A stretch of DNA of 64,000 nt, taken from the sequence record OM630585.1. One strand, given 5' to 3'. Within the stretch, counting starts at the first letter, position 1. Every line of letters begins with the position of its first letter. The notes beneath the pieces were generated by a model. The model saw only the letters and a program-made list of their open reading frames with translations, was not told the DNA's origin and made no database searches. Below are positions 26,071 to 57,795 of this stretch, piece after piece. The stretch is from Escherichia phage vB_EcoM_LNA6. The position numbers and the translations under genes are program-made.

Positions 26071-26370
26071 CTAGTCTGCCAACCTTAAATTGAAATTAAC
26101 ACCAAATTTTTCACATACTTCCAACATATACTCAAGGGAAACATTACCAGTGAGGTGGATTATGTTGGATACACGAGCCTGAGAGATACCACAAATTTTA
26201 GCAACTTGCTCTTGAGAAAGACCTCTTGATTTAATCTCTCTCTTAAAACGATGTGCAACGAAGTCTCTCATTTCATCTACATCCATTGGACAAATATAAC
26301 TCTCCATTTCAGCCTCTCTATCAGCCTCCCAATCATCTTGTGGGGCATAAGGGTCAAAAACCTCATTCAT
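26071..26370 (-). CDS. XRE-type helix-turn-helix DNA-binding protein
   Basis: C-terminal GLSQEQVAKICGISQARVSNIIH matches HTH_XRE pattern; start trimmed to ATG 26370 (track start at 26400 is TTG). Confidence 0.5.
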   Translation of the reverse strand: MNEVFDPYAPQDDWEADREAEMESYICPMDVDEMRDFVAHRFKREIKSRGLSQEQVAKICGISQARVSNIIHLTGNVSLEYMLEVCEKFGVNFNLRLAD

Positions 26371-26575
26371 CTTTCTTCTTCCGTTTGAGTGAAGTGTCAA
26401 TCAATGAATCTATGTTTGTAGCCCTAACCTTTTCACGTTCATCATTAAGATAATCGTCAAGAGCCTTTTCAATCTGTGAATCATCTTGACAGATGACTGT
26501 AAAGACTGTAAAGCCGTCTGTATCGTCAATTATCTTACCATAACCGCTTCTGGGATGTAACTTTTTAAGAGCCAT
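26363..26575 (-). CDS. hypothetical protein
   Basis: 70 aa ORF. Confidence 0.35.
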   Translation of the reverse strand: MALKKLHPRSGYGKIIDDTDGFTVFTVICQDDSQIEKALDDYLNDEREKVRATNIDSLIDTSLKRKKKDE

Positions 26576-26576
26576 A

Positions 26577-26960
26577 TTAGATACCTGTGCAGCTTCTGTT
26601 TTCTAAGAAATACTCAACACCATACATAGCTTTTTGCATCAAATCTTCTTTAAACTGGATACGATGGTTGAGCATAGCCTGTACATCAATATCATCATGG
26701 TGCTTCTCTTTAATATTTGCAGATTGCAGGAAATACTCTGCAAGAACGCGATACTGGTAGTCAGTTACCTTATCAGTCATCTCTGTCAAAGACTCTTCAG
26801 AGATTGGTTTAAGTAGCTCACCATTAGCTAGAGCAACACCTTTTACAATCTGGCAAGTATCCTCTGGAACACCTGATAAGTCCACATTTGGAAGTTCTGT
26901 TGCATTGACTGGTAAATTCATTGCCATAACCATTGCAGCAGCTAATAAAATCTTTTTCAT
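26577..26960 (-). CDS. secreted protein with N-terminal signal peptide (hypothetical)
   Basis: 127 aa; MKKILLAAAMVMAMNLPVNA signal-peptide-like N-terminus. Confidence 0.5.
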   Translation of the reverse strand: MKKILLAAAMVMAMNLPVNATELPNVDLSGVPEDTCQIVKGVALANGELLKPISEESLTEMTDKVTDYQYRVLAEYFLQSANIKEKHHDDIDVQAMLNHRIQFKEDLMQKAMYGVEYFLENRSCTGI

Positions 26961-27004
26961 AATGACCTCAAAGTTATATTAAATTTTGTATTACATTGAG
27001 TATA

Positions 27005-27177: not shown

Positions 27178-27193
27178 AGCCTCCGAAGAGGCT
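27178..27193 (-). terminator. intrinsic terminator hairpin (minus strand) after gene 27205..27645
   Basis: AGCCTC-CGAA-GAGGCT hairpin; on the minus strand followed by CCTTTTTAAAAGG. Confidence 0.45.
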
Positions 27194-27204
27194 GCCTAGT
27201 CAAC

Positions 27205-27645
27205 TTAGAAAGGTTTTCTACGTTGCTTGTTAATGTTAGCTTTCATAGCAGCTAAATGGTTTTGCTGTTCAATTAGTCGTGAACGTTCTTGATGGCTAAG
27301 TGCCATAGTGTTCACATTCTCAATTGCTTGAGTGGCTTGCTTTAAAGCTCGACCAATCTTACCAGACATTTTACGTTTTGCAATAGTTGCTTGATGCTTA
27401 GGTTCAACCACACGATAACCAACACCCATTGAAGCAACCAGATAAATCTTCTCTTCTTTAAGAAGCTTCTCAATAAACTTCTCAAGTCGGTTTAGACGTG
27501 TAAGCGCATAAGCCTTCATTTCATCTTCGTACTTAACAATGTCACCTTGATAAGTTGGCTTCACAATACCTAAGAAGGTGTCCATCTCAGAATGTGATAC
27601 AGTGTCACCGTAACTAAACTTTGCTGCTAATGCTTTCGTATTCAT
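27205..27645 (-). CDS. hypothetical protein (repeat-flanked cassette gene 2)
   Basis: 146 aa ORF, basic C-terminus; no recognisable motif. Confidence 0.45.
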   Translation of the reverse strand: MNTKALAAKFSYGDTVSHSEMDTFLGIVKPTYQGDIVKYEDEMKAYALTRLNRLEKFIEKLLKEEKIYLVASMGVGYRVVEPKHQATIAKRKMSGKIGRALKQATQAIENVNTMALSHQERSRLIEQQNHLAAMKANINKQRRKPF

Positions 27646-27647
27646 AA

Positions 27648-28253
<606 letters not shown>

Positions 28254-28309
28254 TTAGTTGATTGTTAAGTTGTTTGTAAAGAACCCTCAACAGAAGACTC
28301 TTTAGAAAC

Positions 28310-31018: not shown

Positions 31019-31575
31019 TCAGTGTACCTCAAGCCAATTCTTACCAACTTTACCAGTACCAGTTACAAGCGTTTCCTCCTTAAGTCCTAAGTTTCTTGAT
31101 GCCTGACCATACATCCAGTCAATCACTGCTTTAACATCTTGTGTCATCTCTTCTGGGCACTCCCAACTATTTTCATCGTGGTATGCTAGAAGCAATCTAG
31201 CACCAATAGCTGGTTTTCGACCATTCAGCTTTGTAAGACCCTCTTCACAAGTTCTTCTACAAGCGAGGTTGATGGCTTCATTCTGAACCTGACTTTCCGA
31301 ACCCATGAGCAGATAATTCAATAGTTTGTGTGGAGATTTACACCACAACCATGCACCAGCAACCTTTACAAAACCACCTTTAGAAATTGCAGCAGTCTTA
31401 CCAAATACCTCTTCAAGAGCCTTCTTAGTGGCTTTGAAGTCAGCTTCCAAATTATCTATCAACTTTTTAATCTTAGGGAGGCGTACAAAGTAAGTTTGCT
31501 TAGTTAAAGCACCTTCTTCGGTTGTTGATGCTTTAATCGTCTTGGCAAACTTCTCATCACCTGCCCCAAACAATA
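31019..31575 (-). CDS. DNA polymerase (family A, T7 gp5-like), exon 2
   Basis: Begins in motif B (..LFGAGDEKF, cf. T7 YGFLYGAGDEK) and ends with motif C region HDENSWECPEE and C-terminal GKNWLEVH; exon boundary inferred. Confidence 0.75.
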
Positions 31576-32376
31576 CATCTGGTCAATACACTCGCAAGGT
31601 GTACCAGTTCTCTTATGAACTTCTCCGCATTTCTACGGAGTGTCGGACTATATCACGTAGTAGTAATACTACCGTTGCACTTGGGAATGGTCATTAGCTT
31701 ACCACCCTACTCTACTCAGTTCATACATTAAGTATGCTTTTCGATAGTCTCTGAACGTTTCTCTGTTAGGAACTCTAAAATACTATTGTTTACTAAGGTA
31801 TGCAATTGCTCTCTGCATATTATCAACGCTATCTGCAAGCAACCCCAAAGCCCTATTGCAATTGTGGCACAACATACCTCTTACTTTTCCGGTTTTGTGG
31901 TCATGGTCAACGACAAGTTTAGCCTTATGCCGTGAACTATTCATGATAAAACCTTCACCGCCACAAATTTGACATTTGTAATCACAGTTACGGAGTAAGG
32001 TTTCAACCTCTTCTCTTTCTAAACCATATGTTCTCAGGTAGTAATTCTTAACTCTACCTTTCTCTCCGCAATGCGAAGAACAATAAACTTGCCTTGCTGT
32101 TCTAGGCATGAACACCTTCTCACAGCTAGGACATTTCTTAGTAAGAACCCTATGTTCTGCTCTTCTGTCAAATTTTAATACGCAACTTCTGCACCGTTTT
32201 TGATTGTATTGGTATGGTTTAAACTCTGCACCACACTCAGTACACAATCTCTCTTTGTAACCTGCCATTGTCTCTCCCCTTTGCTTTAGGAGTCCTAACA
32301 GAGACTTCGCTGCTGATTACCATATCTTTACAGACTTAGGCTTCCAGCAATTCACAACGTTTTACATGCGCCACTG
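31576..32376 (-). mobile_element. group I intron interrupting the DNA polymerase gene in motif B (boundaries approximate)
   Basis: Minus strand shows GTTCAGAGACTATCG (R/P7 5' strand) and GATATAGTCCGAC (S/P7 3' strand) downstream of the HNH ORF, plus a CTCCG-TAGAAAT-CGGAG hairpin; polymerase reading frame interrupted by stops on both sides. Confidence 0.7.
31783..32268 (-). CDS. HNH homing endonuclease (endonuclease VII-like), intron-encoded
   Basis: 161 aa; multiple CxxC pairs and LVVDHDHKTGKVRGMLCHNCNRALG, a His-Me finger/EndoVII-type HNH motif; lies wholly inside the polymerase intron. Confidence 0.75.
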   Translation of the reverse strand: MAGYKERLCTECGAEFKPYQYNQKRCRSCVLKFDRRAEHRVLTKKCPSCEKVFMPRTARQVYCSSHCGEKGRVKNYYLRTYGLEREEVETLLRNCDYKCQICGGEGFIMNSSRHKAKLVVDHDHKTGKVRGMLCHNCNRALGLLADSVDNMQRAIAYLSKQ

Positions 32377-34519
32377 ACGCATAAATGCCATTCTTGGCTT
32401 TCTTACGACCCTTACTAATTTCTTGAAGAAGGTTTGTATCCTGAGTAGCTCGACAAGTCAAGATATCTTCCTCTTTATTAAGGCTGAAGTAGATGCTATT
32501 TAAAGTATGCGCATCAGTTCCTGAGTACACCACGTACAAGTCATTTTCAGAATCATAATGCAAATACTTGTCAATCTCTGGGTTTAGATACTGGTCAAAA
32601 TGTTTGCAATAGTATCTGCCATCCTCTTGTTTGACAAACTCAACTTCTTCTTTACCCTCTGTCACTGCTTTGGTGAACTCTTTATCACCCATAAAGTTAC
32701 ACAGCAGTACAAGTTGCGCGCTATTCATATCTGCTGAAACAATATTAGTTCCTTCTTCACAAGTCCACACCTCCCTCATAGGTGCTCCATAGACAGCAGC
32801 ACCAGACGGTACGTTTACAATACCATATTGTGTCATACGTCCAGTTGAAGTGCCAAACACCATTGCACCAGCACTAAGGCGACCATCAGGACGAATCTGG
32901 TTCAACCAACCTTTTTCATCATCCTTTGAGTTCTCAATAGTTCTGCGTCGGTGCATCAAAGTATAGTACTTAGCAATCTTCTGTCCAAGCTCACCTTCAA
33001 TCGTATCATAAGATGATTCAGTAAGTTTTGGTGAAGTACGGATTAAGCAAGGTTCAAGCAAATCTGTGTATTTCTTCACAGACCAGTTATGCTCAATATA
33101 CTGTACACCTTCGTGCTCAACATAGCTCAAACCACACCGCTCAACCATTTCCTGCCACTTAGGATGTTTTGTAATCATCTTTTTATTGTCTTTGAAACGA
33201 CAAACTTTGACAGGGCGACCATCTGAGTCTTTCTTGTAGTTCCAGTCATCTGGAATCCAACCAACTGATTTCAAGTAGTCTTTAACAACTGCTACCTGAG
33301 TCATACGAGAAACTTCAAACTCAATTGGTGTATACGGTGCATCAATCAAACCTGTGTAGCGACTTGACTCAAGTTCAAAGTGGTTAACAACGTGACTGTT
33401 ATAGTACTTCACAGTTTTGACTGTTTTTACTGGCTTCCAGTCTTTGCATTTCTTACCAATCTTTGCATTCAACTCATTGCAAATTTCACGAGCATCCTTC
33501 ATTGCTACAAAACCCTCCTTGTACTCTTCACCAGTTACAGAGTTGGTTGGTGTATAGCAATTTCTCTTTTCAATGTTAAAAATCTTTGTAGTTGGCTTAC
33601 CAAATGGCTTGATTTCATATGTCTGCATCTCACCATTACGTACCTGCTGACGATACTTTGTCTTAGGGTACTTGGTAATCCTCTTCAGTCCATCTGCATG
33701 ACCAAATGTTTCAACATACTCATTCCAAGCCCTTGCAAACTCTTCTCCAGTGACTTTACCTTTGGTCTTAATAGTTGGAGGAAGATGTGGTTCAACCTCT
33801 GAAGCAAGCTCATTAGTCAACTTGTCAAGTTCCTTTACATGGAACTCCATAAGCTCTTTATCAGCTTTCCAACCATTGATAGCTTGCTGGCTCATCCAGA
33901 AAGATGTCTCTTTAGCTCGCATGTAGGTTTCATAAGTGTCTATGCCACACTTCTTAAGCTTGAGATACTCGTTATCAAGTGCCCGTTTAGTTTTGGTGTT
34001 AATACGGATATCTTCTACAACACGAGTGAAGATTTCTGCATTCCACACACCCCAATGTTCAATCTCTGGTTTACGAACACCGACACGAGCACCCCATGCA
34101 GCCAAACCATGAGCACCTTTATAACCCCTTGGAGTTGGTCTATCCATCCACTGAACACGAGACTGAATAAGAGAATCCTGAAAGAAATTACTCCACGGCT
34201 TACACTTTGGATTATCAAAGTTCCATAAATCAGGTGCAATGTGATTGAAAACCCACCAGTCATAACCGAGACCGTTATGGATGCAAAGACGTTTTGCCTT
34301 TAACGCAAACTCAACACCTTCACGTAAACCACCCTTAATGTACTTGGTATACTTGTGACCGAGGATAGGCTCATCTGTGAAGACCCATACAGGTGGCTCT
34401 TCATCGTCAGATTTATAGTCTGCAAAAGCCATTACGTGAACTTTAGTGAACTCAAGGAGTAAACCATCAGTCTCTGTATCACCAACCAAATGTAAGTTTT
34501 TAAAATCTATGTTTTCCAT
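32377..34519 (-). CDS. DNA polymerase (family A, T7 gp5-like), exon 1 with 3'-5' exonuclease domain
   Basis: N-terminal VGDTETDGL (Exo I DxE); regions YTPIEFEV, GRLSAGAMVFGTSTGR and ADMNSAQLVLLCNFMG align from memory with T7 DNA polymerase; ends in motif B RKKAKNGIY. Confidence 0.8.
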
Positions 34520-40388: not shown

Positions 40389-41435
40389 ATGGAGAAGTAC
40401 ACATTAACAAAGCTTCCCGATTCAGTTACACATGTCTTTATTGACTCTGACAGTATTGCCTATAAAGGTGCTTGTGTAGTTGAGAAAGCAAAATATAAAT
40501 ATGTCAATAAACTCACAGCAGAAGAATCTGAGCCATTTGATAATGCTAAAGATGCTGCAAGATGGTTAGCAGACCAGAGAATCCTTGTGGAAGAACTTGG
40601 CCTAGCATTTGATGAAGATGAATGGGAAAGACAGACTTGGAAAGAAGCTAAGAGTGAAAAAGAGGCTATCATGGCTACTCAACAGGTTCTTCAGGAATGG
40701 CTTAAGGTTGTTGGTAAAGAGAGAACTTGGGTAGGTTACTTAACAGAGAAAGGTGTGCATAAACATAAAGACATTAAAGGTCTTGAGCACCAATATCAAG
40801 GTAACCGTAAAGATGCTGTCACACCAACACACTTAGTTGCTTGTCGTGAATATCTTCTGTCAAGACCAGAGTTCAAATTGATTCTTGATGGATTTGAAGC
40901 TGACTCTATCGTTATTGCTAAAGCTGAAAAGATGGGAAAAAAGGCTGCCTTAATGAGTATTGATAAAGACCTTCGCCAAGCTGAAGGGACTTACTGCATT
41001 GATATGACCTATGAAAAGTCGCCTTTGATTTTTATTGCTGATAACAACGTTGGTGAAATTTGGGATTGTCCAATAAAATCGACACCAAAAGCTAAGAAGA
41101 CAGTTGGGGTAGGTTTTAAATTTCTTTGTTACCAAGCTGTGGCTGGTGATAATGCTGATAATTATTTTGGTTTAAAGGGCGTTGGTAAGGCTACTGTAAT
41201 GAAAGCCCTTGAAGGTAAAACTACTTATAAAGAGTGTCTTGATGCTATCTATGAACTTTATGCTAAGAAAGAGTCCTATACTTATGTCTCGTGGGATGGT
41301 CAAACAATTACCAGAACACCTTTAGAGTTAATGCAGCAACACTTTTTCTTAGCTTATCAGGAAAGAAACAAGAAAGACGATTTCACTTTTGATAAGTATG
41401 GGTGGACACCAAATGTTAACTCAACAAACTCTTAA
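40389..41435 (+). CDS. 5'-3' exonuclease / flap endonuclease (RNase H-like)
   Basis: 348 aa; VFIDSDSIAY, ADSIVIAKAEK and MSIDKDLRQ resemble acidic clusters of T4 RNase H / FEN family; GLKGVGKATV helix-hairpin-helix-like. Confidence 0.55.
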   Translation: MEKYTLTKLPDSVTHVFIDSDSIAYKGACVVEKAKYKYVNKLTAEESEPFDNAKDAARWLADQRILVEELGLAFDEDEWERQTWKEAKSEKEAIMATQQVLQEWLKVVGKERTWVGYLTEKGVHKHKDIKGLEHQYQGNRKDAVTPTHLVACREYLLSRPEFKLILDGFEADSIVIAKAEKMGKKAALMSIDKDLRQAEGTYCIDMTYEKSPLIFIADNNVGEIWDCPIKSTPKAKKTVGVGFKFLCYQAVAGDNADNYFGLKGVGKATVMKALEGKTTYKECLDAIYELYAKKESYTYVSWDGQTITRTPLELMQQHFFLAYQERNKKDDFTFDKYGWTPNVNSTNS

Positions 41436-41913
41436 AGAATACCTGCACTATGACCCCGAAACAGGGGTCTTTACTTGGTTAGTTGGTAGAAAAGGTAAGG
41501 CCAAAGCTGGCTCAGTAGCAGGTCTTAAACATCATAGTGGTTATATCTATATAAAACTCTTCGGAAAAAGATATGCAGCACACAGACTGGCATTCTTGTA
41601 TATGAAAGGATACCTCCCAAAATTTGTTGACCACAAAAATGGTATCAGGCACGACAACTGGTTCGACAATTTGAGAGAGTGTAGCAGGTCAGACAACAAC
41701 TGCAATGCAGTCAAAAGAAAAGATAATAAGTCTGGTGTGAAGGGTGTATATTACCACAAGCAAAGAGGTAGATGGGCTGCACAAGTCAAGCATAATAAAG
41801 TATGCTACCATCTAGGTTTATTTGACTCTATCACTGAGGCTGAATCAGTTGTCAAAAAGAAAAGAGAAGAACTCCATAGAGAGTTTACAAATCACGGAGA
41901 AGCTCATGAATGA
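41413..41913 (+). CDS. HNH homing endonuclease with AP2-like domain (free-standing)
   Basis: FVDHKNGIRHDNWFDNLRECSRSDNNCN HNH motif followed by SGVKGVYYHKQRGRWAAQV AP2-like segment; start trimmed to ATG 41413; paralogue of 55455..55946. Confidence 0.7.
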   Translation: MLTQQTLKEYLHYDPETGVFTWLVGRKGKAKAGSVAGLKHHSGYIYIKLFGKRYAAHRLAFLYMKGYLPKFVDHKNGIRHDNWFDNLRECSRSDNNCNAVKRKDNKSGVKGVYYHKQRGRWAAQVKHNKVCYHLGLFDSITEAESVVKKKREELHREFTNHGEAHE

Positions 41914-48199: not shown

Positions 48200-49396
48200 A
48201 TGAACAAAGTACAGATTATTAAAAAGAACGGCTCACTTGAAGAACCTGATATCAAAAAAGTTTTAGCAGCAGTCACAAAGTCAGCTAACAGAGTTGGTTA
48301 TAAAGAGCTTCCACCAGATGTTACTCAAGCTCTTGAGTCAGCATTTATGAGGATTCTGGTAAAATCTACTAAGCAGAATAATTTACTCGTTTCAGTAAAT
48401 GATATTCACAGTATTGTTGAGGGTGCTTTGGCAGAAGTCAATCACGAGATTTATGAGTCTTACTCAACATATAGAAATTACCGTAAAGAGGTTGCTCAAA
48501 ATTGGGATGAACTTTACCAGAAGACCAAAGATACACTCTTCTTAGGTGACCGAGAAAACGCTAATTTTGACAGCAGTTTAATTTCTACAAAAGGTTCAAT
48601 TATTCGTGGTTACCTGACTAAAGAAATCTTTAAACAGTACCACTTAACACCAGAGGAACTTGAAGCCATTGAAAAAGGGTTTATTTATATCCATGACTTA
48701 AGAGACCTAATTTTTGGTGGTATCAACTGTTGTCTGTTTGACATTGGTAAAGTGCTGAAAGGTGGCTTTGAAATGTCTGGCATTGAATATTGTGAACCGA
48801 AGTCTGTACTGTCAGCATTACAGGTTATTGGCGATGTAGTTCTTTCAGCAACTGCACAGCAATTTGGTGGCTTTACTTTAGCAGAGATTGATAAGGTACT
48901 TGTACCGTATGCTAAAAAATCTTTAGTGTACCACTCAGAGAAAGCTGAAGAGTACGGAATCCCTAAAGAGCAACACTATAATTACGTAATGGAGCAATTA
49001 CAGAATGAGTTAACACAAGGTTTCCAATCTCTTGAAATGAAACTTAACACTGTTCCTTGCAGTCGCGGTGATTTTGCATTTACTACTCTGACATTTGGTC
49101 TGTTGGAACCAGATATGCACAATGAAGATAACCGTCTTCAGTTTATGATTGCCAATACAATCCTTAACGTAAGGATGAACGGGCAAGGAAAAAGCAAAAA
49201 ACCTGTTGTGTTCCCTAAACTTGTGTATATCTATGAAGAAACGAGACATAAGCTTGATGTATGCCAAGTAAGGTTGTTTGAAAAAGCTATTGAGTGTTGC
49301 TCTAAAGCTATGTATCCAGATTTCTTAAGTGTATCTGGTCATGGTGCTGTAGCAGAGGCTTTTGAGCGTTCTGGTAAGGTAATTTCCCCGATGGGT
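48200..49396 (+). CDS. nrdD: anaerobic ribonucleoside-triphosphate reductase, exon 1
   Basis: YIHDLRD..GGINCCLFD...EPKSVLSALQVIGDVVLSATAQQFGGFTLAEIDKVL aligns from memory with T4 NrdD; exon ends ..ISPMG with final U at 49396 followed in-frame by TAA. Confidence 0.8.
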
Positions 49397-50138
49397 TAAC
49401 AAGCTCTATAGCTCATCTAAAACGTGCCTAAACAGGGAAACTCTACAGATGTAGACAATCCTGTGCTAAATGATGTACGATGTAAGAAACTATACAACAT
49501 AGGAGTCTTACATGCCAAACTATCACGTCACTGAAGATGGAAAAGTCTTTAGGGAAAATGGTGTAGAGCTTACGCAGTGGAAATCCAACACTGGGTATAT
49601 GAAAGTGAGGTTTTACGGTAAGAAGAATCGTGACATGTATGTCCACAGGTTAGTTGCTGAGAAATATGTACCTAACCCGAACAATCTTCCAATTGTAAAA
49701 CATAAGGACGATAACAAACTAAATAACCACGTATCTAACTTAGAATGGGGTACTCATTCTGAGAATGCTAAAGAAGGTTATGAGAATGGATGCTACAAGT
49801 TCCACAAGCGTTCATATGCCGTGAAAGCCACACACAAAGTGACAAAGGAAGTTATTGTTACTAAGTCAATACGAGAGTTATCCAATATACTTGGATACAA
49901 TCGCAAGACCATCTCTTCAATATTGAAGGGTGTAAAAGAGCATAATAACTTCGAATATGAGTTTGAATACATCTAAATGCCGAACGACTAACCGTGATGA
50001 ATGTAGCGGTGTAGGGTCAAGCGACTCGAAATGGTACGCTACTTAGAAATAAGTAGAAGATATAGTCTGGACTTACTGGCGACAGTAAGCAGCTTGAATA
50101 AAGCGGGGTAAGCTTAGCGAACTTACCTGAACAATAAG
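49397..50138 (+). mobile_element. group I intron in nrdD
   Basis: Interrupts NrdD between ..VISPMG and CRAFLS.. (cf. T4 ..VSPMGCRSFLS); intron ends with G 50138; core GACTCGAAA (P7 5'), CTACTTA-GAAA-TAAGTAG (P8, 7 bp stem, GAAA loop), AGATATAGTC (P7 3') at about 50018-50065. Confidence 0.75.
49512..49976 (+). CDS. HNH homing endonuclease with NUMOD-like HTH, intron-encoded
   Basis: 154 aa; VHRLVAEKY...HKDDNKLNNHVSNLEWGTHSEN HNH motif; C-terminal SIRELSNILGYNRKTISSILKG HTH-like; inside nrdD intron. Confidence 0.7.
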   Translation: MPNYHVTEDGKVFRENGVELTQWKSNTGYMKVRFYGKKNRDMYVHRLVAEKYVPNPNNLPIVKHKDDNKLNNHVSNLEWGTHSENAKEGYENGCYKFHKRSYAVKATHKVTKEVIVTKSIRELSNILGYNRKTISSILKGVKEHNNFEYEFEYI

Positions 50139-51086
50139 TGTAGAGCATTTTTATCACCATACCATAACGAATATGGTGAAGAGTTTTATGTAGGTCGTGC
50201 TAACATTGGTGCTGTATCTTTGAACTTACCAATGATTTACCAGTATTCTAAAGAGAAGGGCTTAGATTTCTGGAAAGAGCTTGATAAGTACCTAGAGATG
50301 ATTCGCAGCTTCCACAAGAAACGCTACGAAATGATTGCTAATATGCCAGCAAGTTCTAACCCTCTTGCATTCACACAAGGTGGTCTGTACAAAGGGACTA
50401 AGAAACCTACTGACAAGGTTGGTTGGGATATCGTGAAGTCCTTCACAGCTTCTTTTGGGGTTACTGCTCTTGATGAACTGTCTGTTCTTGCTGAAGGTAA
50501 ACGACTTCATGAAGTTGGAAGATATAGTTTTGCATACGATGTTCTGGAATACATCAACATGAAAACTGAAGAGTTTAAGAACGAAGATGGCTTCTTGTAT
50601 GCGGTATATGGCACTCCAGCAGAATCACTTTGTGGAACTCAGTTAAAACAGTTCAGAGATATGTTTGGCGTTATTAAAGGTGTCTCTGACAAGGAATACT
50701 TTACAAACAGTTTCCATATGAATGTTGCAGCAGACATCTCACCATTTGAGAAGCAGGACTTAGAAGAGCCATTCTTCCATATCTGTAGAGGTGGCAGAAT
50801 CCAGTATGTAAGGGTAGCTAACCCAGAAAACTTAACAGCACTTAAAAGTTGTATTACCAGAGGGATGTTGAAGGGTTTTTATCAGGGACTTAACTTTAAC
50901 TTAGCAATCTGTGAACATTGTGGTAACAGACCAAAGGCTGATGTTGAAGAATGTGAGGTTTGTCATTCACACGATATCTCTGTGATTAACAGGGTGTGCG
51001 GATATTTGGGATGGACTAAGATTAAAGGTGAATCCCGAATGAATGATGCAAAAATCGCTGAGATTCGTGACAGAATTTCTATGTAA
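50139..51086 (+). CDS. nrdD: anaerobic ribonucleoside-triphosphate reductase, exon 2
   Basis: Open frame from 50139 (CRAFLSPYHNEYGEEF..); YFTNSFHMNV and C-terminal glycyl-radical region RVCGYLGW align from memory with T4 NrdD. Confidence 0.8.
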   Translation, partial: CRAFLSPYHNEYGEEFYVGRANIGAVSLNLPMIYQYSKEKGLDFWKELDKYLEMIRSFHKKRYEMIANMPASSNPLAFTQGGLYKGTKKPTDKVGWDIVKSFTASFGVTALDELSVLAEGKRLHEVGRYSFAYDVLEYINMKTEEFKNEDGFLYAVYGTPAESLCGTQLKQFRDMFGVIKGVSDKEYFTNSFHMNVAADISPFEKQDLEEPFFHICRGGRIQYVRVANPENLTALKSCITRGMLKGFYQGLNFNLAICEHCGNRPKADVEECEVCHSHDISVINRVCGYLGWTKIKGESRMNDAKIAEIRDRISM

Positions 51087-53713: not shown

Positions 53714-53767
53714 AAAGATACTATAAGGGGGCTGTAAAGGTTCCCTTTTTATTTTTGTGGAGATACT

Positions 53768-54283
53768 ATGTACCTGTCAAACCTGAAACGTTCGGCTGCA
53801 ATGTCAGTGTTAAGACTCAGCTTTGAGGAACGTCAAGAGTTCATTGACTCCCACCAATACGACCCCTCAAACTCCAATCACATGATTCTCTGGAATCGTG
53901 AGAGTACTCGTGAAAGAGCATTATTCCGATATTACCCATACTACACCATAGATAACCTGTATGAATGTTTTGTTGTGAAGAACACCATTACAGTGCTCAA
54001 TAAACTTTGCAGATACACAGGTAGTCAATCCTTCACATTAGGCCACCACAAACCTGTTACAAAAGGTGGTGAACATCACTGTGCAAACTGGTTTATCCAA
54101 ACTAAAGCTGATAACCAGAAGCAAGGAGATAGCCTCCTAAGTACACCTAAGATGACCTATGAAGAGCAAGAGAAATATATCAAAAACAATATGCCAGATG
54201 TGCTTGACAACAACTATACAGATTTGGCAATATCTCTCCTGTTGAAGTTCGAGACAGTTTATAGGGCAACTTATAATGGCTAA
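53768..54283 (+). CDS. HNH-motif nuclease domain protein (putative, cysteine-less HNH)
   Basis: LGHHKPVTKGGEHHCANWFIQTKADNQKQGD matches the spacing of the HNH core (H-H..P...GG.....N........N..K..D). Confidence 0.4.
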   Translation: MYLSNLKRSAAMSVLRLSFEERQEFIDSHQYDPSNSNHMILWNRESTRERALFRYYPYYTIDNLYECFVVKNTITVLNKLCRYTGSQSFTLGHHKPVTKGGEHHCANWFIQTKADNQKQGDSLLSTPKMTYEEQEKYIKNNMPDVLDNNYTDLAISLLLKFETVYRATYNG

Positions 54284-54605
54284 AGAGAAGTGGGAGATTT
54301 TACCATTAGTCAGTGAAGGTGGTAATGGTTGTGAGATGTACATGATACGTGGTCATGTTCCAGAACCAATTGCACTTGAGATGGTAAACAACTTTACAGA
54401 TGGTTCTTACAAAGACTTAGGCGAACCAACTGTCAAGCAACAATGGGTTAAACCTGTACCAGACAGCACAGGTAACTGTAGTGTACTTTATCACGTTGTA
54501 GACCCTGCAAAATGCAAATCTGCAATGGCAGTAACAAACGTAACTTTGATTGAGAGAGAAAACTATGAAGACATCTATCCGTGTTACAGTTCATTCACCA
54601 ACTAA
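54276..54605 (+). CDS. hypothetical protein
   Basis: 109 aa ORF. Confidence 0.35.
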   Translation: MAKEKWEILPLVSEGGNGCEMYMIRGHVPEPIALEMVNNFTDGSYKDLGEPTVKQQWVKPVPDSTGNCSVLYHVVDPAKCKSAMAVTNVTLIERENYEDIYPCYSSFTN

Positions 54606-55446
54606 AGGAACTCATGAAGAGGAGTTTAACATCATCCAATTTCCTTCTGGTGAGATTGGTGGACACTTTTCGCCAGAGTTTGTTGATTTCACTGCTTATG
54701 CAGCATCATCCATCAACAATGTGATTATGATTGTAAAAGGTTATGATAAGGATACATTGTTTGCTGTTGCACTTGCTAAAGAAGCAATTGATGATTTAGT
54801 CCCTCATGACTATGCCTTAAAGACTGTCATCTTTTACTACTTACCAAATGCACGTTATGACCGTCACATGTTTAAAGGTGACGCAGCAGCTTTAAAGGTT
54901 TTTGCTAAACAGGTAAATGCAATGGGATTTGGTGCAGTCTGTGCAGTTGACCCTCACAGTTACGTTCCAGATAACCTGTTTAACTGCTTCCAGAGTATTC
55001 CTCAAAAGGAGATTGCAGTTCACTACGCAAATGACCCACTGATTGATTACTTAGTAGCCCCAGATGCAGGTGCTTCTAAGAAGATTGCAGAGACTGCTAA
55101 AGAGGTGGATAAACCATACATCACAATGTCTAAAGTACGCAACCTCAAGACTGGTGAAATTACTGGTATGCGAATCCTTGACGATGTTGATTTGACAGAT
55201 AAAACCGTCATGATTCTTGATGATATCTGTGATGGTGGTCGAACCTTCGTAGAGGCAGCTAAACACCTACGTGAAGCAGGTGCAAAACGTGTTGAGCTTT
55301 ATGTAACACATGGTATCTTCTCTAAAGGTGTTGAAAACCTTCTTGACAACGGTATCGACCATATTTACACTACAAACTCTTTAGGCGAAGCTAAAGACCG
55401 TGGCTTAACACATTATAGTCAAGTTACTGTAGCAAATTTGGATTAG
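54565..55446 (+). CDS. ribose-phosphate pyrophosphokinase (PRPP synthetase)-like protein; candidate ADPR-pyrophosphate synthetase
   Basis: VMILDDICDGGRTF (PRPP-binding loop, cf. VLVDDMIDTGGTL), GAKRV and THGIFS align from memory with E. coli Prs C-terminal half; start at ATG 54565. Confidence 0.7.
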   Translation: MKTSIRVTVHSPTKGTHEEEFNIIQFPSGEIGGHFSPEFVDFTAYAASSINNVIMIVKGYDKDTLFAVALAKEAIDDLVPHDYALKTVIFYYLPNARYDRHMFKGDAAALKVFAKQVNAMGFGAVCAVDPHSYVPDNLFNCFQSIPQKEIAVHYANDPLIDYLVAPDAGASKKIAETAKEVDKPYITMSKVRNLKTGEITGMRILDDVDLTDKTVMILDDICDGGRTFVEAAKHLREAGAKRVELYVTHGIFSKGVENLLDNGIDHIYTTNSLGEAKDRGLTHYSQVTVANLD

Positions 55447-55454
55447 GTATTAAA

Positions 55455-55946
55455 ATGGATAAGGGTTACTTCGAAAAATACCTAATATACGAACCGGAGA
55501 CAGGTTTACTAATTTGGAAAGTAACCCTTTGCAATACCGCTATTGCTGGTAATGTTGCTGGCACAAGGTCTAAGAAGGGTTATATCCAAGTCCAGATAAA
55601 TAAGAAGAGGTACTATGCACATAATATTGCATGGATTATGTCTGGAGGTGAGATACCAAGTGGATATGAGATAGACCACATAGACCTTGATAAATCTAAT
55701 AATAAGTTGGAGAATTTAAGACTTAGCACAAAGTCACAAAATCAGAGGAATAGGGGTATATACAAGAATAATAAAACTGGTGTGAAGGGTGTAAGTTTTT
55801 GTAAACAAACAGGTCTTTACAAAGCAAGAGTCATGCTTTACCATAAAGAATACTTTTGTGGAAGATTTAAAACGGTAGAAGAAGCAAAAGAAGCTGTAAT
55901 TAAAAAGCGAATAGAACTTCATGGTGAGTTTGCAAGACATAACTAA
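55455..55946 (+). CDS. HNH homing endonuclease with AP2-like domain (free-standing)
   Basis: YEIDHIDLDKSNNKLENLRLSTKSQNQRN HNH-type motif followed by TGVKGVSFCKQTGLYKARV AP2-like segment; paralogue of 41413..41913. Confidence 0.65.
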   Translation: MDKGYFEKYLIYEPETGLLIWKVTLCNTAIAGNVAGTRSKKGYIQVQINKKRYYAHNIAWIMSGGEIPSGYEIDHIDLDKSNNKLENLRLSTKSQNQRNRGIYKNNKTGVKGVSFCKQTGLYKARVMLYHKEYFCGRFKTVEEAKEAVIKKRIELHGEFARHN

Positions 55947-55960
55947 GAGAGAGATAAAAT

Positions 55961-57742
55961 ATGAGTAAGTCACTTTACGCAGTACCAGCAGGTCTTAATG
56001 CAGATGCTTACAAGGCATCACATATATATCAGTATCCAGATGCTACGCAATATCTTATGTTGAACCTGACACCACGTAGTGACAAATGGTTTAACAGCCC
56101 CTTAGCAATTGATGGTGTAGTAGCTTTTGGTATTCAACGTTTCGTTAAAGATTACTTGATAGACCACTGGAACGCCACTTTCTTTGAACGTGATAAAAAA
56201 GAAGCCATTGATGAAATCTTAGAAGTCATGAACGGTGTTCTGGGCAAAGATGCTATTGGTCGAGAGCATTGGGAAGCACTTCACGACTTAGGTTATCTGC
56301 CAGTCGAAGTATACGCTGTAGAAGAAGGCACAGTTGTTCCGATGCGTGTCCCAATGATTGCCTTCCAGAACACTGTTTCAGGATTCCATTGGGTAGCAGG
56401 TTATCTGGAAGATGCTTTCTCTGCTGAGATTTGGAAGGCTTGCACTATTGCGACTATTGCATTGCACTACAAACGTATCTGTAAGAAGTGGGCTGACCTT
56501 ACTTGCGACAATGAATTACATTTACCTTATCAGTGCCATGACTTTGCTATGCGTGGTATGTCCGGCTTTACCGATGACGCATTTAATGCTGTAGGTCACT
56601 TAACCAGCTTTAAAGGAACTGATAGCTTCCCTGCTGTATACACGGCTAAACGCATCTATGGACAGTCTTACCCAATTTCTGATATTGGTAGTTCTGTACC
56701 AGCCACTGAACACTCTGTAATGTGTGCAAATATTGCTTGGGAAGGTGGTAATGAATTGATTGAAGAAGAAAGACGCTTTAAAGGTGAGTTGCAAACCTTC
56801 CGTCGTTTCTTAACAGAAACTTACCCAACTGGTATTGCAAGCATTGTGTCAGATACTTATAACTTCTGGAGAACTGTGTCAGAAATCTTACCAGCACTCC
56901 GTAAAGAAATTATGGAACGTGACGGTAAGCTGGTAATTCGCCCTGACTCTGGAGACCCTGTACATATTGTCACAGGTTATAAAGCAATCCACTTAGAGTG
57001 TGCTAAAAAGGCTTATTACGAGCACCTAAGCAAGCTGGAAGCTAGTGATACAATGCTGAACTCTGTTCTGAACATGAAGCTTGAAAACATCAACTATGGT
57101 ATTGCTGGATGGCTACTGTCAGAAGGCTACGAAATGGTTGTTGACCGAGAAGACTTTGAAGTTGCTGATACAGTGATGTTGAAAAATGCTTATATGGTTG
57201 GTTCTGCAAACGTTGTAACACGTCCTGTAGCAGAGATTGATGGAGCTATTAAGACCCTGTATAACATCTTCGGAGGAACTATCAACTCTAAAGGTTTTAA
57301 GGTACTGGATGAGCACATTGGACTTATCTATGGTGACTCTATCACACTGGAACGTGCAAACGAAATCCTGAAGCGTCTGTATGAAATGGGTTTTGCAAGC
57401 TCTAACGTAGTGTTTGGCGTAGGCTCTTACACTTACCAGTACATGACTCGTGACACCTTTGCATTTGCTGTTAAAGCAACTCTTGCAAGCATTGGTGGTA
57501 AAGAGATTATGCTTGCAAAAGACCCTAAAACAGATAGTGGTGTGAAGAAGTCTGCCTTTGGTGGTGTAGCACCTATGTGGGATGGTGATAAGCTGAAAGC
57601 TGTAGATGGCTATGGGTTCCAGAGCTTTGCAGATGCACTTGAACATCCAGCTTGTGCTCTACGCTTAGTCTTTAGTGATTCTGAGCAGTATGGTTACACA
57701 TCTCTTGGTGATATTCGAAATAATATTGACAAACAGCTTTAA
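55961..57742 (+). CDS. nadV: nicotinamide phosphoribosyltransferase (NAMPT/NadV) family protein
   Basis: DAYKASHIYQYP, HDFAMRGMSGF..GHLTSFKGTDS, SVPATEHSVM, RPDSGDPV and YGDSIT align from memory with NAMPT conserved blocks; 593 aa with C-terminal extension. Confidence 0.8.
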   Translation: MSKSLYAVPAGLNADAYKASHIYQYPDATQYLMLNLTPRSDKWFNSPLAIDGVVAFGIQRFVKDYLIDHWNATFFERDKKEAIDEILEVMNGVLGKDAIGREHWEALHDLGYLPVEVYAVEEGTVVPMRVPMIAFQNTVSGFHWVAGYLEDAFSAEIWKACTIATIALHYKRICKKWADLTCDNELHLPYQCHDFAMRGMSGFTDDAFNAVGHLTSFKGTDSFPAVYTAKRIYGQSYPISDIGSSVPATEHSVMCANIAWEGGNELIEEERRFKGELQTFRRFLTETYPTGIASIVSDTYNFWRTVSEILPALRKEIMERDGKLVIRPDSGDPVHIVTGYKAIHLECAKKAYYEHLSKLEASDTMLNSVLNMKLENINYGIAGWLLSEGYEMVVDREDFEVADTVMLKNAYMVGSANVVTRPVAEIDGAIKTLYNIFGGTINSKGFKVLDEHIGLIYGDSITLERANEILKRLYEMGFASSNVVFGVGSYTYQYMTRDTFAFAVKATLASIGGKEIMLAKDPKTDSGVKKSAFGGVAPMWDGDKLKAVDGYGFQSFADALEHPACALRLVFSDSEQYGYTSLGDIRNNIDKQL

Positions 57743-57757
57743 AAGTATATGATAAGA

Positions 57758-57779
57758 GGCTCCTACGGGAGCCTTTTTA
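57758..57779 (+). terminator. rho-independent terminator
   Basis: GGCTCC-TACG-GGAGCC hairpin followed by TTTTT. Confidence 0.6.
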
Positions 57780-57795
57780 ATTTCTGGAGAAGACT

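Follow-up and report, generated by a model that had tools for sequence, protein, structure and literature searches.

The stretch analysed here, 64,000 nucleotides of the Escherichia phage vB_EcoM_LNA6 genome (OM630585.1), is referred to below as the window. At 54565–57742 it contains a Prs-like gene and a NAMPT-like gene, which are very probably (about 0.94) adps and namat of the NARP1 anti-defence operon of Felixounavirus. NARP1 is an important recent example of counter-defence, in which viruses rebuild a metabolite destroyed by host immunity. The pathway itself is already known and was discovered in a phage of the same genus; as an orthologue of the operon that revealed it, the locus adds nothing conceptually new. 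Adps and Namat of the window presumably share the activities of their characterised homologues.

The window belongs to a Felixounavirus genome. The locus is 95.9% identical at the nucleotide level to that of phage dune, and identity is 95–96% in many other Felixounavirus genomes (FelixO1-like myoviruses of E. coli, Salmonella, and Shigella), many of which are phage-therapy candidates. Over its entire length, the window is collinear with positions 223–62054 of Bas63 (Escherichia phage JohannRWettstein, MZ501086.1), with approximately 79–97% nucleotide identity per aligned block. The window Adps aligns with Bas63_0079 over its full length and without gaps at 79% identity (232/293), and the window Namat, equal in length to Bas63_0080, aligns with it without gaps at 97% (575/593). 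The two genes lie on the same strand, adps ending at 55446 and namat starting at 55961, with only a 492-bp endonuclease gene between them. Of the Adps-clade proteins, 97% have a Namat homologue encoded very close to adps (10.1101/2024.02.11.579819).

NARP1, consisting of Adps and Namat, was discovered by deleting genes 79–80 of Bas63 (Osterman et al. 2024, bioRxiv 10.1101/2024.02.11.579819). The deletion made the phage approximately 20-fold more sensitive to the SIR2-HerA defence system, whereas wild-type Bas63 overcomes SIR2-HerA and restores nicotinamide adenine dinucleotide (NAD+) even in a ΔpncC ΔnadR host. A new metabolite, ADP-ribose pyrophosphate (ADPR-PP), was detected only when wild-type Bas63 and a defence system were both present. 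Adps of the Bacillus phage SpβL1 converts ADP-ribose (ADPR) and ATP into ADPR-PP; in a test for Prs activity, that is, the synthesis of phosphoribosyl pyrophosphate (PRPP), it yielded no product. In turn, SpβL1 Namat converts ADPR-PP and nicotinamide into NAD+, and NAD+ was its only product with PRPP also supplied; neither Adps K162A nor Namat R306G showed activity. Protection was shown for Bas63 against SIR2-HerA, for Fado against DSR2, and for SpβL1 NARP1 against Thoeris I, and FelixO1 is listed as a NARP1 phage in Tables S1/S2 (10.1101/2024.02.11.579819).

By analogy with these homologues, the locus would act after SIR2-HerA, type I Thoeris, DSR1/2, or SEFIR has cleaved NAD+ into ADP-ribose and nicotinamide. 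Adps (54565–55446) would form ADPR-PP by transferring pyrophosphate from ATP to the terminal ribose of ADP-ribose, and Namat (55961–57742) would replace the pyrophosphate with nicotinamide, giving NAD+ directly. NARP1 would need neither a nicotinamide mononucleotide (NMN) intermediate nor an adenylyltransferase. A preliminary description of the window, made from the sequence alone, had considered the gene pair compatible with this two-enzyme route and had named NMN salvage as the alternative. The former is supported, as NARP1, by the Bas63 orthology and by the determinants of the adenine clamp described below.

Adps and Namat of the window

The program-listed Prs-like ORF begins at TTG 54550; the adps start was set at ATG 54565, because GAGAGAGA precedes this ATG and the annotated start of relatives coincides with it. 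The peptide motifs quoted in the preliminary description are all present where it had placed them: the PRPP-binding loop VMILDDICDGGRTF, GAKRV, and THGIFS in the Prs-like open reading frame (ORF), and DAYKASH, HDFAMRG, SVPATEHSVM, and RPDSGDPV in the NAMPT-like ORF. The Prs-like protein matches Pribosyltran (3.4e-11), TIGR01251 (4.3e-35), and PHROG 619 (1.5e-97). TIGR01251, a broad subfamily model, is the sole Prs model whose cut-off is cleared (121 vs. 113). The best Prs equivalog score is 103 bits vs. a cut-off of 296, and PRK01259 gives 91 vs. 297 (NCBIfam). Pfam shows only the C-terminal Pribosyltran and Pribosyl_synth domains (residues 165–279), and Pribosyltran_N was not detected in this ORF; both marks of a canonical Prs, the equivalog-level score and the N-terminal Pribosyltran_N domain, are absent from the window protein. 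Its identity with the characterised SpβL1 Adps is 34% (97 bits), K190 being aligned with the essential K162, and the match to E. coli Prs reaches only 47 bits.

The NAMPT-like protein matches NAPRTase (6.7e-35), NAMPT_N (9e-6), NF006629 (2.9e-141), and PHROG 448 (1e-201). It clears the NF006629 cut-off (471 vs. 405), a model that has no power to separate Namat from Nampt. The family matches of all three ORFs of the locus lie well above chance level. When solved relatives are ranked by sequence, SpβL1 Namat is first (434 bits), followed by Haemophilus ducreyi NadV (HdNadV, 357), Xanthomonas Nampt (180), and mammalian NAMPT (146). The AlphaFold2 (AF2) model of the window Namat has a pLDDT of 92.8, and its top Foldseek match is SpβL1 Namat 9W5X (E 1e-53, TM 0.95). 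The comparison with profiles and structures proposed in the preliminary description thus sets Adps below the Prs equivalog cut-offs and places Namat closest to 9W5X.

Namat is discriminated from Nampt by an adenine “selectivity clamp”, described from the SpβL1 Namat structures 9W5W and 9W5X (NAR 2026, PMC12774641). One part of the clamp is a variable β1–β2 loop, whose contribution is either Arg, or Lys/Tyr with a stacking residue after it; with Lys as the third loop residue, stacking falls to the residue that follows it, and Bas63 is cited as an example. The other part is a helix with the signature GSXΦXΦXΦTRD (PMC12774641). The loop of the window Namat carries K42-W43, which is the Lys-type pair of Bas63, and its helix reads G488-S-Y-T-Y-Q-Y-M-T-R-D498, Tyr occupying the third and seventh positions of the motif. 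The same site in Nampts reads GGGLLQQLDRD (KVP40-like), GAQTYQRNTRD (HdNadV), and GGALLQKVDRD (Xanthomonas). The locus of the KVP40-like phage PVA23, where the NARP2 partner is neither adjacent to the Nampt gene nor annotated, was used for the comparison of Nampt motifs only. A canonical NMN-forming Nampt/NadV would be without the clamp and would have a partner Nmnat in the genome, which does not correspond to the window protein.

All residues in contact with nicotinamide, ribose-phosphate, and AMP are conserved (D15, Y17, F195, R198, D221, A248, H251, R327, D329, G458, D459, and S460), and the catalytic His251 is present. The residues found to be essential by mutagenesis are also kept: K162 of Adps corresponds to K190, and F189, D215, and R306 of Namat correspond to F195, D221, and R327. 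The dN/dS ratio of namat is 0.06.

Genes for an adenylyltransferase and for accessory enzymes were sought by Pfam scans of all ORFs of at least 60 aa in the non-structural part of the window (22.9–63.7 kb) and of the Bas63 coding sequences (CDS) at 61.7–87.1 kb, beyond the window; positions 1–22.8 kb, outside the scan, are collinear with Bas63 genes annotated as structural. Negative results refer to the matches listed in each batch, the best 25 families by E-value, the remaining families having E >0.003. Neither NMNAT (CTP_transf_like) nor NUDIX turned up among these ORFs and CDS, and the Bas63 annotation lists no NMNAT or Nudix gene either. This agrees with the preliminary description, which had recognised no such gene in the window and had proposed a genome-wide scan.

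Similarly, no Macro/Adpp or RyR/RyDEP gene was found in the operon or among the scanned non-structural ORFs of the window, and no RyR domain in the Bas63 CDS at 61.7–87.1 kb. The sole Macro protein is bas63_0095 (Bas63 63278–64063; 26178–26963 of the Bas63 segment L006), whose gene would lie approximately 1.5 kb past the 3′ end of the window by collinearity, and which is approximately 8 kb downstream of the locus in relatives. Annotated as “putative phosphatase”, it carries a Macro domain at the N-terminus (E 1e-7), and its alignment with Adpp, the phosphatase of the Vibrio phage Gary NARP1-AP that acts on ADPR-1''-P, covers Adpp completely (27% identity, E 1e-13). Conservation extends to approximately 240 Felixounavirus-like records. 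However, its family is T4 Tk.4-like and very widespread (2796 phage records), so that bas63_0095 is not specific evidence for NARP1-AP.

When comparing the window Namat with its homologues, a difference in protein size can be noted, which the preliminary description had attributed to a C-terminal extension of 100 aa. This proved incorrect: in alignments, NF006629, HdNadV, and the KVP40-like Nampt stop only a few residues short of the window C-terminus, and positions 9–462 of the 465 of NF006629 align to window residues 12–590, covering both termini. The additional residues lie within the protein. In the alignment with SpβL1 Namat (PDB 9W5X), the match is interrupted between window residues 343 and 428, where an insertion of approximately 70–85 aa (~aa 340–425) is located; the window protein has 97 residues there vs. 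20–29 in short-form homologues. A further insertion of approximately 15 aa is found at ~aa 262–279. Bas63 Namat carries the identical long insertion, which is also present, with variable sequence, in many homologues of 580–610 aa, down to approximately 45% identity. AF2 models it confidently as a small α/β subdomain, for which no structural relative was found.

Chromosomal homologues of 496 aa occur in Klebsiella, Cronobacter, Erwinia, Kosakonia, and relatives, where they are labelled nicotinate phosphoribosyltransferase. They have the motif GS[FY]TYQYNTRD and no insertion, and fit the bacterial NARP1 homologues of PMC12774641.

As for Adps, its differences from the Bas63 protein are concentrated in the N-terminal domain. 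The first ~165 codons of adps have 57–77% nucleotide identity to Bas63, whereas the flanks have 92–100%; at the protein level, identity is 68% for aa 1–165 and approximately 94% for the C-terminal half. The mosaic region spans window positions 54537–55060, and its boundary lies close to where the two Prs-fold domains meet. Across the phage collection the distribution is bimodal: 155 records are at least 90% identical to the window allele, 97 are at 60–80%, and no record of the collection falls at 80–90%. The other allele is that of Bas63 and FelixO1. Positive selection on this domain was considered and rejected, pS being 0.76 (synonymous sites saturated) vs. a pN of 0.20; dN/dS of the C-terminal half is 0.08. 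Apparently, the N-terminal domain is an ancient allele exchanged by recombination and kept under purifying selection, with no rapid adaptive change.

The insertion subdomain of Namat and the dimorphic N-terminal domain of Adps are two features to be flagged in the Felixounavirus enzymes. That Felixounavirus NARP1 exists in functionally distinct variants, defined by the Adps N-terminal alleles and the Namat insertion, is quite unlikely. If it did, the variants could change the substrate range (other ADPR derivatives, produced by non-canonical NADases), regulation, or the Adps–Namat interaction, and different alleles might counter different defence outputs.

Operon layout and the intergenic endonuclease gene

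The locus consists of three tightly packed, co-directional ORFs on the + strand. These and the surrounding features, with the evidence for each, are as follows.

53725–53747, +: terminator-like hairpin (9-bp stem, 4 GC pairs, then a T-run), probable 5′ boundary of the transcription unit.
53768–54283, +: ORF of 171 aa, hypothetical protein, bas63_0077 equivalent (PHROG 3500, E 1.3e-91; weak HNH-like match, 1.3e-4).
54276–54605, +: ORF of 109 aa, hypothetical protein, bas63_0078 equivalent, overlapping the adps start (PHROG 4726, E 1.8e-58).
54552–54559, +: Shine-Dalgarno-like GAGAGAGA, 5 nt before the adps ATG (sequence reading).
54565–55446, +: adps, Prs homologue of 293 aa with catalytic lysine K190 (Bas63_0079, SpβL1 Adps, and PHROG 619 matches).
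55455–55946, +: gene of an HNH (HNH_3) + AP2-like free-standing homing endonuclease, 163 aa, in the adps–namat spacer (HNH_3, PHROG 99).
55947–55954, +: Shine-Dalgarno-like GAGAGAGA before the namat ATG (Bas63 has GAGAGAGA at the same ATG-relative position).
55961–57742, +: namat, NAMPT homologue, long form, 593 aa (Bas63_0080, 97%; SpβL1 Namat as best solved relative).
56084–56089, +: selectivity-clamp loop K42-W43, predicted adenine stacking (identical to Bas63).
56978–57235, +: internal insertion subdomain of the long-form Namat, ~aa 340–425.
57422–57454, +: selectivity-clamp helix motif G488-SYTYQYMTRD-498 (Namat signature GSXΦXΦXΦTRD).
57754–57777, +: terminator-like hairpin 12 nt past the namat stop (10-bp stem, 5 GC pairs, then a T-run), probable 3′ end.

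The terminator-like sites come from a consensus scan only. The hairpins at 53725–53747 and 57754–57777 bracket the unit, and adps and namat are each preceded by the same GAGAGAGA. The two ORFs between the upstream hairpin and adps may be co-transcribed with NARP1, judging by their position; the Pfam scan revealed no Macro or RyR domain in the 171-aa ORF and no Pfam match for the 109-aa ORF. Directly 3′ of namat, Bas63 has the 345-nt gene bas63_0081 (L006 18408–18752), which is missing from the window at 57794/57798.

According to the preliminary description, the pair was split by an HNH-AP2 homing endonuclease. Such a gene does lie between adps and namat, but both ORFs are continuous and have the full length of their Bas63 counterparts. 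The HNH part of the assignment is well founded (HNH_3, 1.6e-19; PHROG 99, 3.5e-69), whereas the AP2 match is weak (4.7e-4) and below the Pfam cut-off (20.8 bits vs. 33.3). In Bas63 this gene is absent from the site and the flanks are clean; instead, there is a 45-nt spacer with the GC-rich hairpin GGGGCTTGAAAGCCCC. The endonuclease ORF stands in place of this spacer and lengthens the adps–namat interval by 509 bp, the Shine-Dalgarno sequence and ATG context of namat being kept. The gene is found once per genome in 60 phage records, including FelixO1, at 90–100% nucleotide identity, and approximately 259 records carry the locus. The 163-aa endonuclease is 40% identical to its paralogue at 41389–41913.

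Presence/absence polymorphism and paralogues are typical of free-standing homing endonucleases in phages. The HNH domain, the intergenic position, and the presence/absence polymorphism of the HNH-AP2 gene are those of this class, the DNA-binding module being weak. By these features it appears to be a selfish free-standing homing endonuclease that plays no part in the pathway. It would have taken the place of a short spacer, leaving both genes and the ribosome-binding site of namat intact. Searches for NARP1 operons must therefore allow for a homing-endonuclease gene between adps and namat.

In the Bas63 spacer (L006 16528–16572; cf. window 55447–55960), the GGGGCTTGAAAGCCCC hairpin is followed by ATTTTG. 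In genomes lacking the endonuclease gene this hairpin may be an internal attenuator or stabiliser, which the insertion would have removed.

Alternative readings of the locus

In ordinary NMN salvage, the Prs-like protein would make PRPP, the NAMPT-like protein would make NMN, and the adenylyltransferase would come from the host (NadR, or PncC and then NadD) or from outside the window. The database names “ribose-phosphate pyrophosphokinase” and “nicotinamide phosphoribosyltransferase” speak for this scheme. However, NMN salvage with an adenylyltransferase encoded elsewhere is contradicted by the ΔpncC ΔnadR experiment, in which Bas63 still defeated SIR2-HerA, and for Bas63 it is largely refuted. 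The lack of product of SpβL1 Adps in the Prs test and the exclusive formation of NAD+ by Namat offered both substrates also stand against it. On the side of the window, the same is true of the adenine clamp, which true Nampts lack, of the score of the Prs-like protein (91 bits vs. the equivalog cut-off of 297), and of the absence of an NMNAT gene from the scanned part of the window (22.9–63.7 kb) and from Bas63. NMN salvage is thus very improbable, and the two Felixounavirus labels should become Adps and Namat. A mixed scheme is unlikely, in which the operon works mainly as NARP1 but host PRPP serves Namat as a second substrate, giving NMN and raising NAD+ without an active defence. In its favour, Namat keeps the chemistry of nicotinamide and PRPP, and clamp mutants retain NMN activity (PMC12774641). 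Nevertheless, NARP1 phages produced no excess NAD+ in defence-free cells, unlike NARP2 phages, and PRPP was out-competed by ADPR-PP (10.1101/2024.02.11.579819).

Another possibility concerns expression: the endonuclease insertion might have uncoupled namat or switched it off, in which case the operon would be non-functional and in decay. The Bas63-type spacer is indeed gone, 509 bp separate the genes in addition, and no clear Shine-Dalgarno sequence was found for the endonuclease gene. Yet the adps and namat ORFs are intact and full length, namat retains its GAGAGAGA, and its dN/dS of 0.06 does not suggest decay. The consensus scan detected no terminator-like site in the short junctions flanking the endonuclease ORF; the only such site within the ORF, at 55613–55634, is weak (7-bp stem, 8-nt loop, no clean T-run). 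Moreover, the arrangement is kept in 60 phage genomes, including FelixO1. A silenced operon is hardly to be expected. Several points do weigh against the assignment of the locus to a functioning NARP1. The biochemistry comes from homologues only 34% (Adps) and ~38% (Namat) identical, Bas63 Adps “did not purify well” (10.1101/2024.02.11.579819), and the genetically tested Adps allele is of the Bas63 type, whereas the window carries the other N-terminal allele. Namat also makes NMN from PRPP in vitro, so that some classical salvage is possible (PMC12774641; 10.1101/2024.02.11.579819), and the endonuclease insertion may influence namat expression.

Related systems and other features of the window

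The closest known system is NARP1 of Bas63, which has the same genus, genomic position, and gene order, and a Namat of 593 aa with the same insertion and clamp residues. It differs in the 45-nt hairpin spacer without an endonuclease, in the Adps N-terminal allele, and in the extra gene 0081 past namat. FelixO1 (AF320576 / NC_005282) has the same adps–HNH–namat order, with the adps start at 82324 and the endonuclease gene at 83214–83705, directly after adps. Its endonuclease gene is 91.7% identical to that of the window at the nucleotide level, and the first ~150 aa of its Adps are of the Bas63 type, with 70.9% identity to the window protein over the N-terminal 165 aa.

NARP1 of the Bacillus phage SpβL1 (Adps WIT26982.1; Namat 9W5W/9W5X) shares with the window the catalytic Lys of Adps, the Namat core, the motif GS[FY]TYQY.TRD, and the fold (TM 0.95). 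Identity is 34% for Adps and ~38% for Namat; SpβL1 Namat is a short form of ~490 aa without the subdomain of ~70–85 aa, and its clamp loop has Arg40 where the window has K42-W43. NARP2 (KVP40-type Nampt with bifunctional Nmnat) and the cellular Nampt/NadV share the NAMPT fold and the catalytic residues for nicotinamide and ribose-phosphate, but clamp positions 3 and 7 are not aromatic in them. The NARP2 partner gene is Nmnat, whereas in the window the partner is Prs-like and Nmnat was not found in the scanned part. In NARP1-AP (Adps–Adpp–Namat, Vibrio phage Gary) and the RyDEP loci (mycobacteriophage DyoEdafos), a third gene is likewise inserted into the Adps and Namat core; it encodes a Macro-domain phosphatase in the former and a RyR-domain glycosidase in the latter, and a homing endonuclease in the window.

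Other differences between the window and Bas63 were found outside the locus. A 1.1-kb block at 27178–28309, absent from Bas63, contains the ORFs 27205–27645 and 27648–28250 on the − strand, with no Pfam match. Another homing endonuclease of the HNH_3 + AP2 type (174 aa) is encoded at 41389–41913 (+), in a block (41400–41909) that is absent from Bas63.

Family A DNA polymerase is encoded by one gene in Bas63 (909 aa) and by two ORFs at 31019–34519 (−) in the window: 32336–34519 (727 aa) corresponds to the N-terminal part and 31019–31573 (184 aa) to the C-terminal DNA_pol_A part. Between them, in a block absent from Bas63, lies the Endonuclease VII-like ORF 31783–32268 (E 2.7e-19). This arrangement is either an intron with a homing endonuclease or a genuinely split gene.

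The nrdD gene of anaerobic ribonucleotide reductase, at 48200–51086 (+), is present in two pieces (48200–49399 and 50220–51086) with an HNH_3 ORF (49512–49976) between them. The interruption is probably a group I intron, since in the Bas63 annotation the equivalent gene is joined from two pieces, with a homing endonuclease inside.

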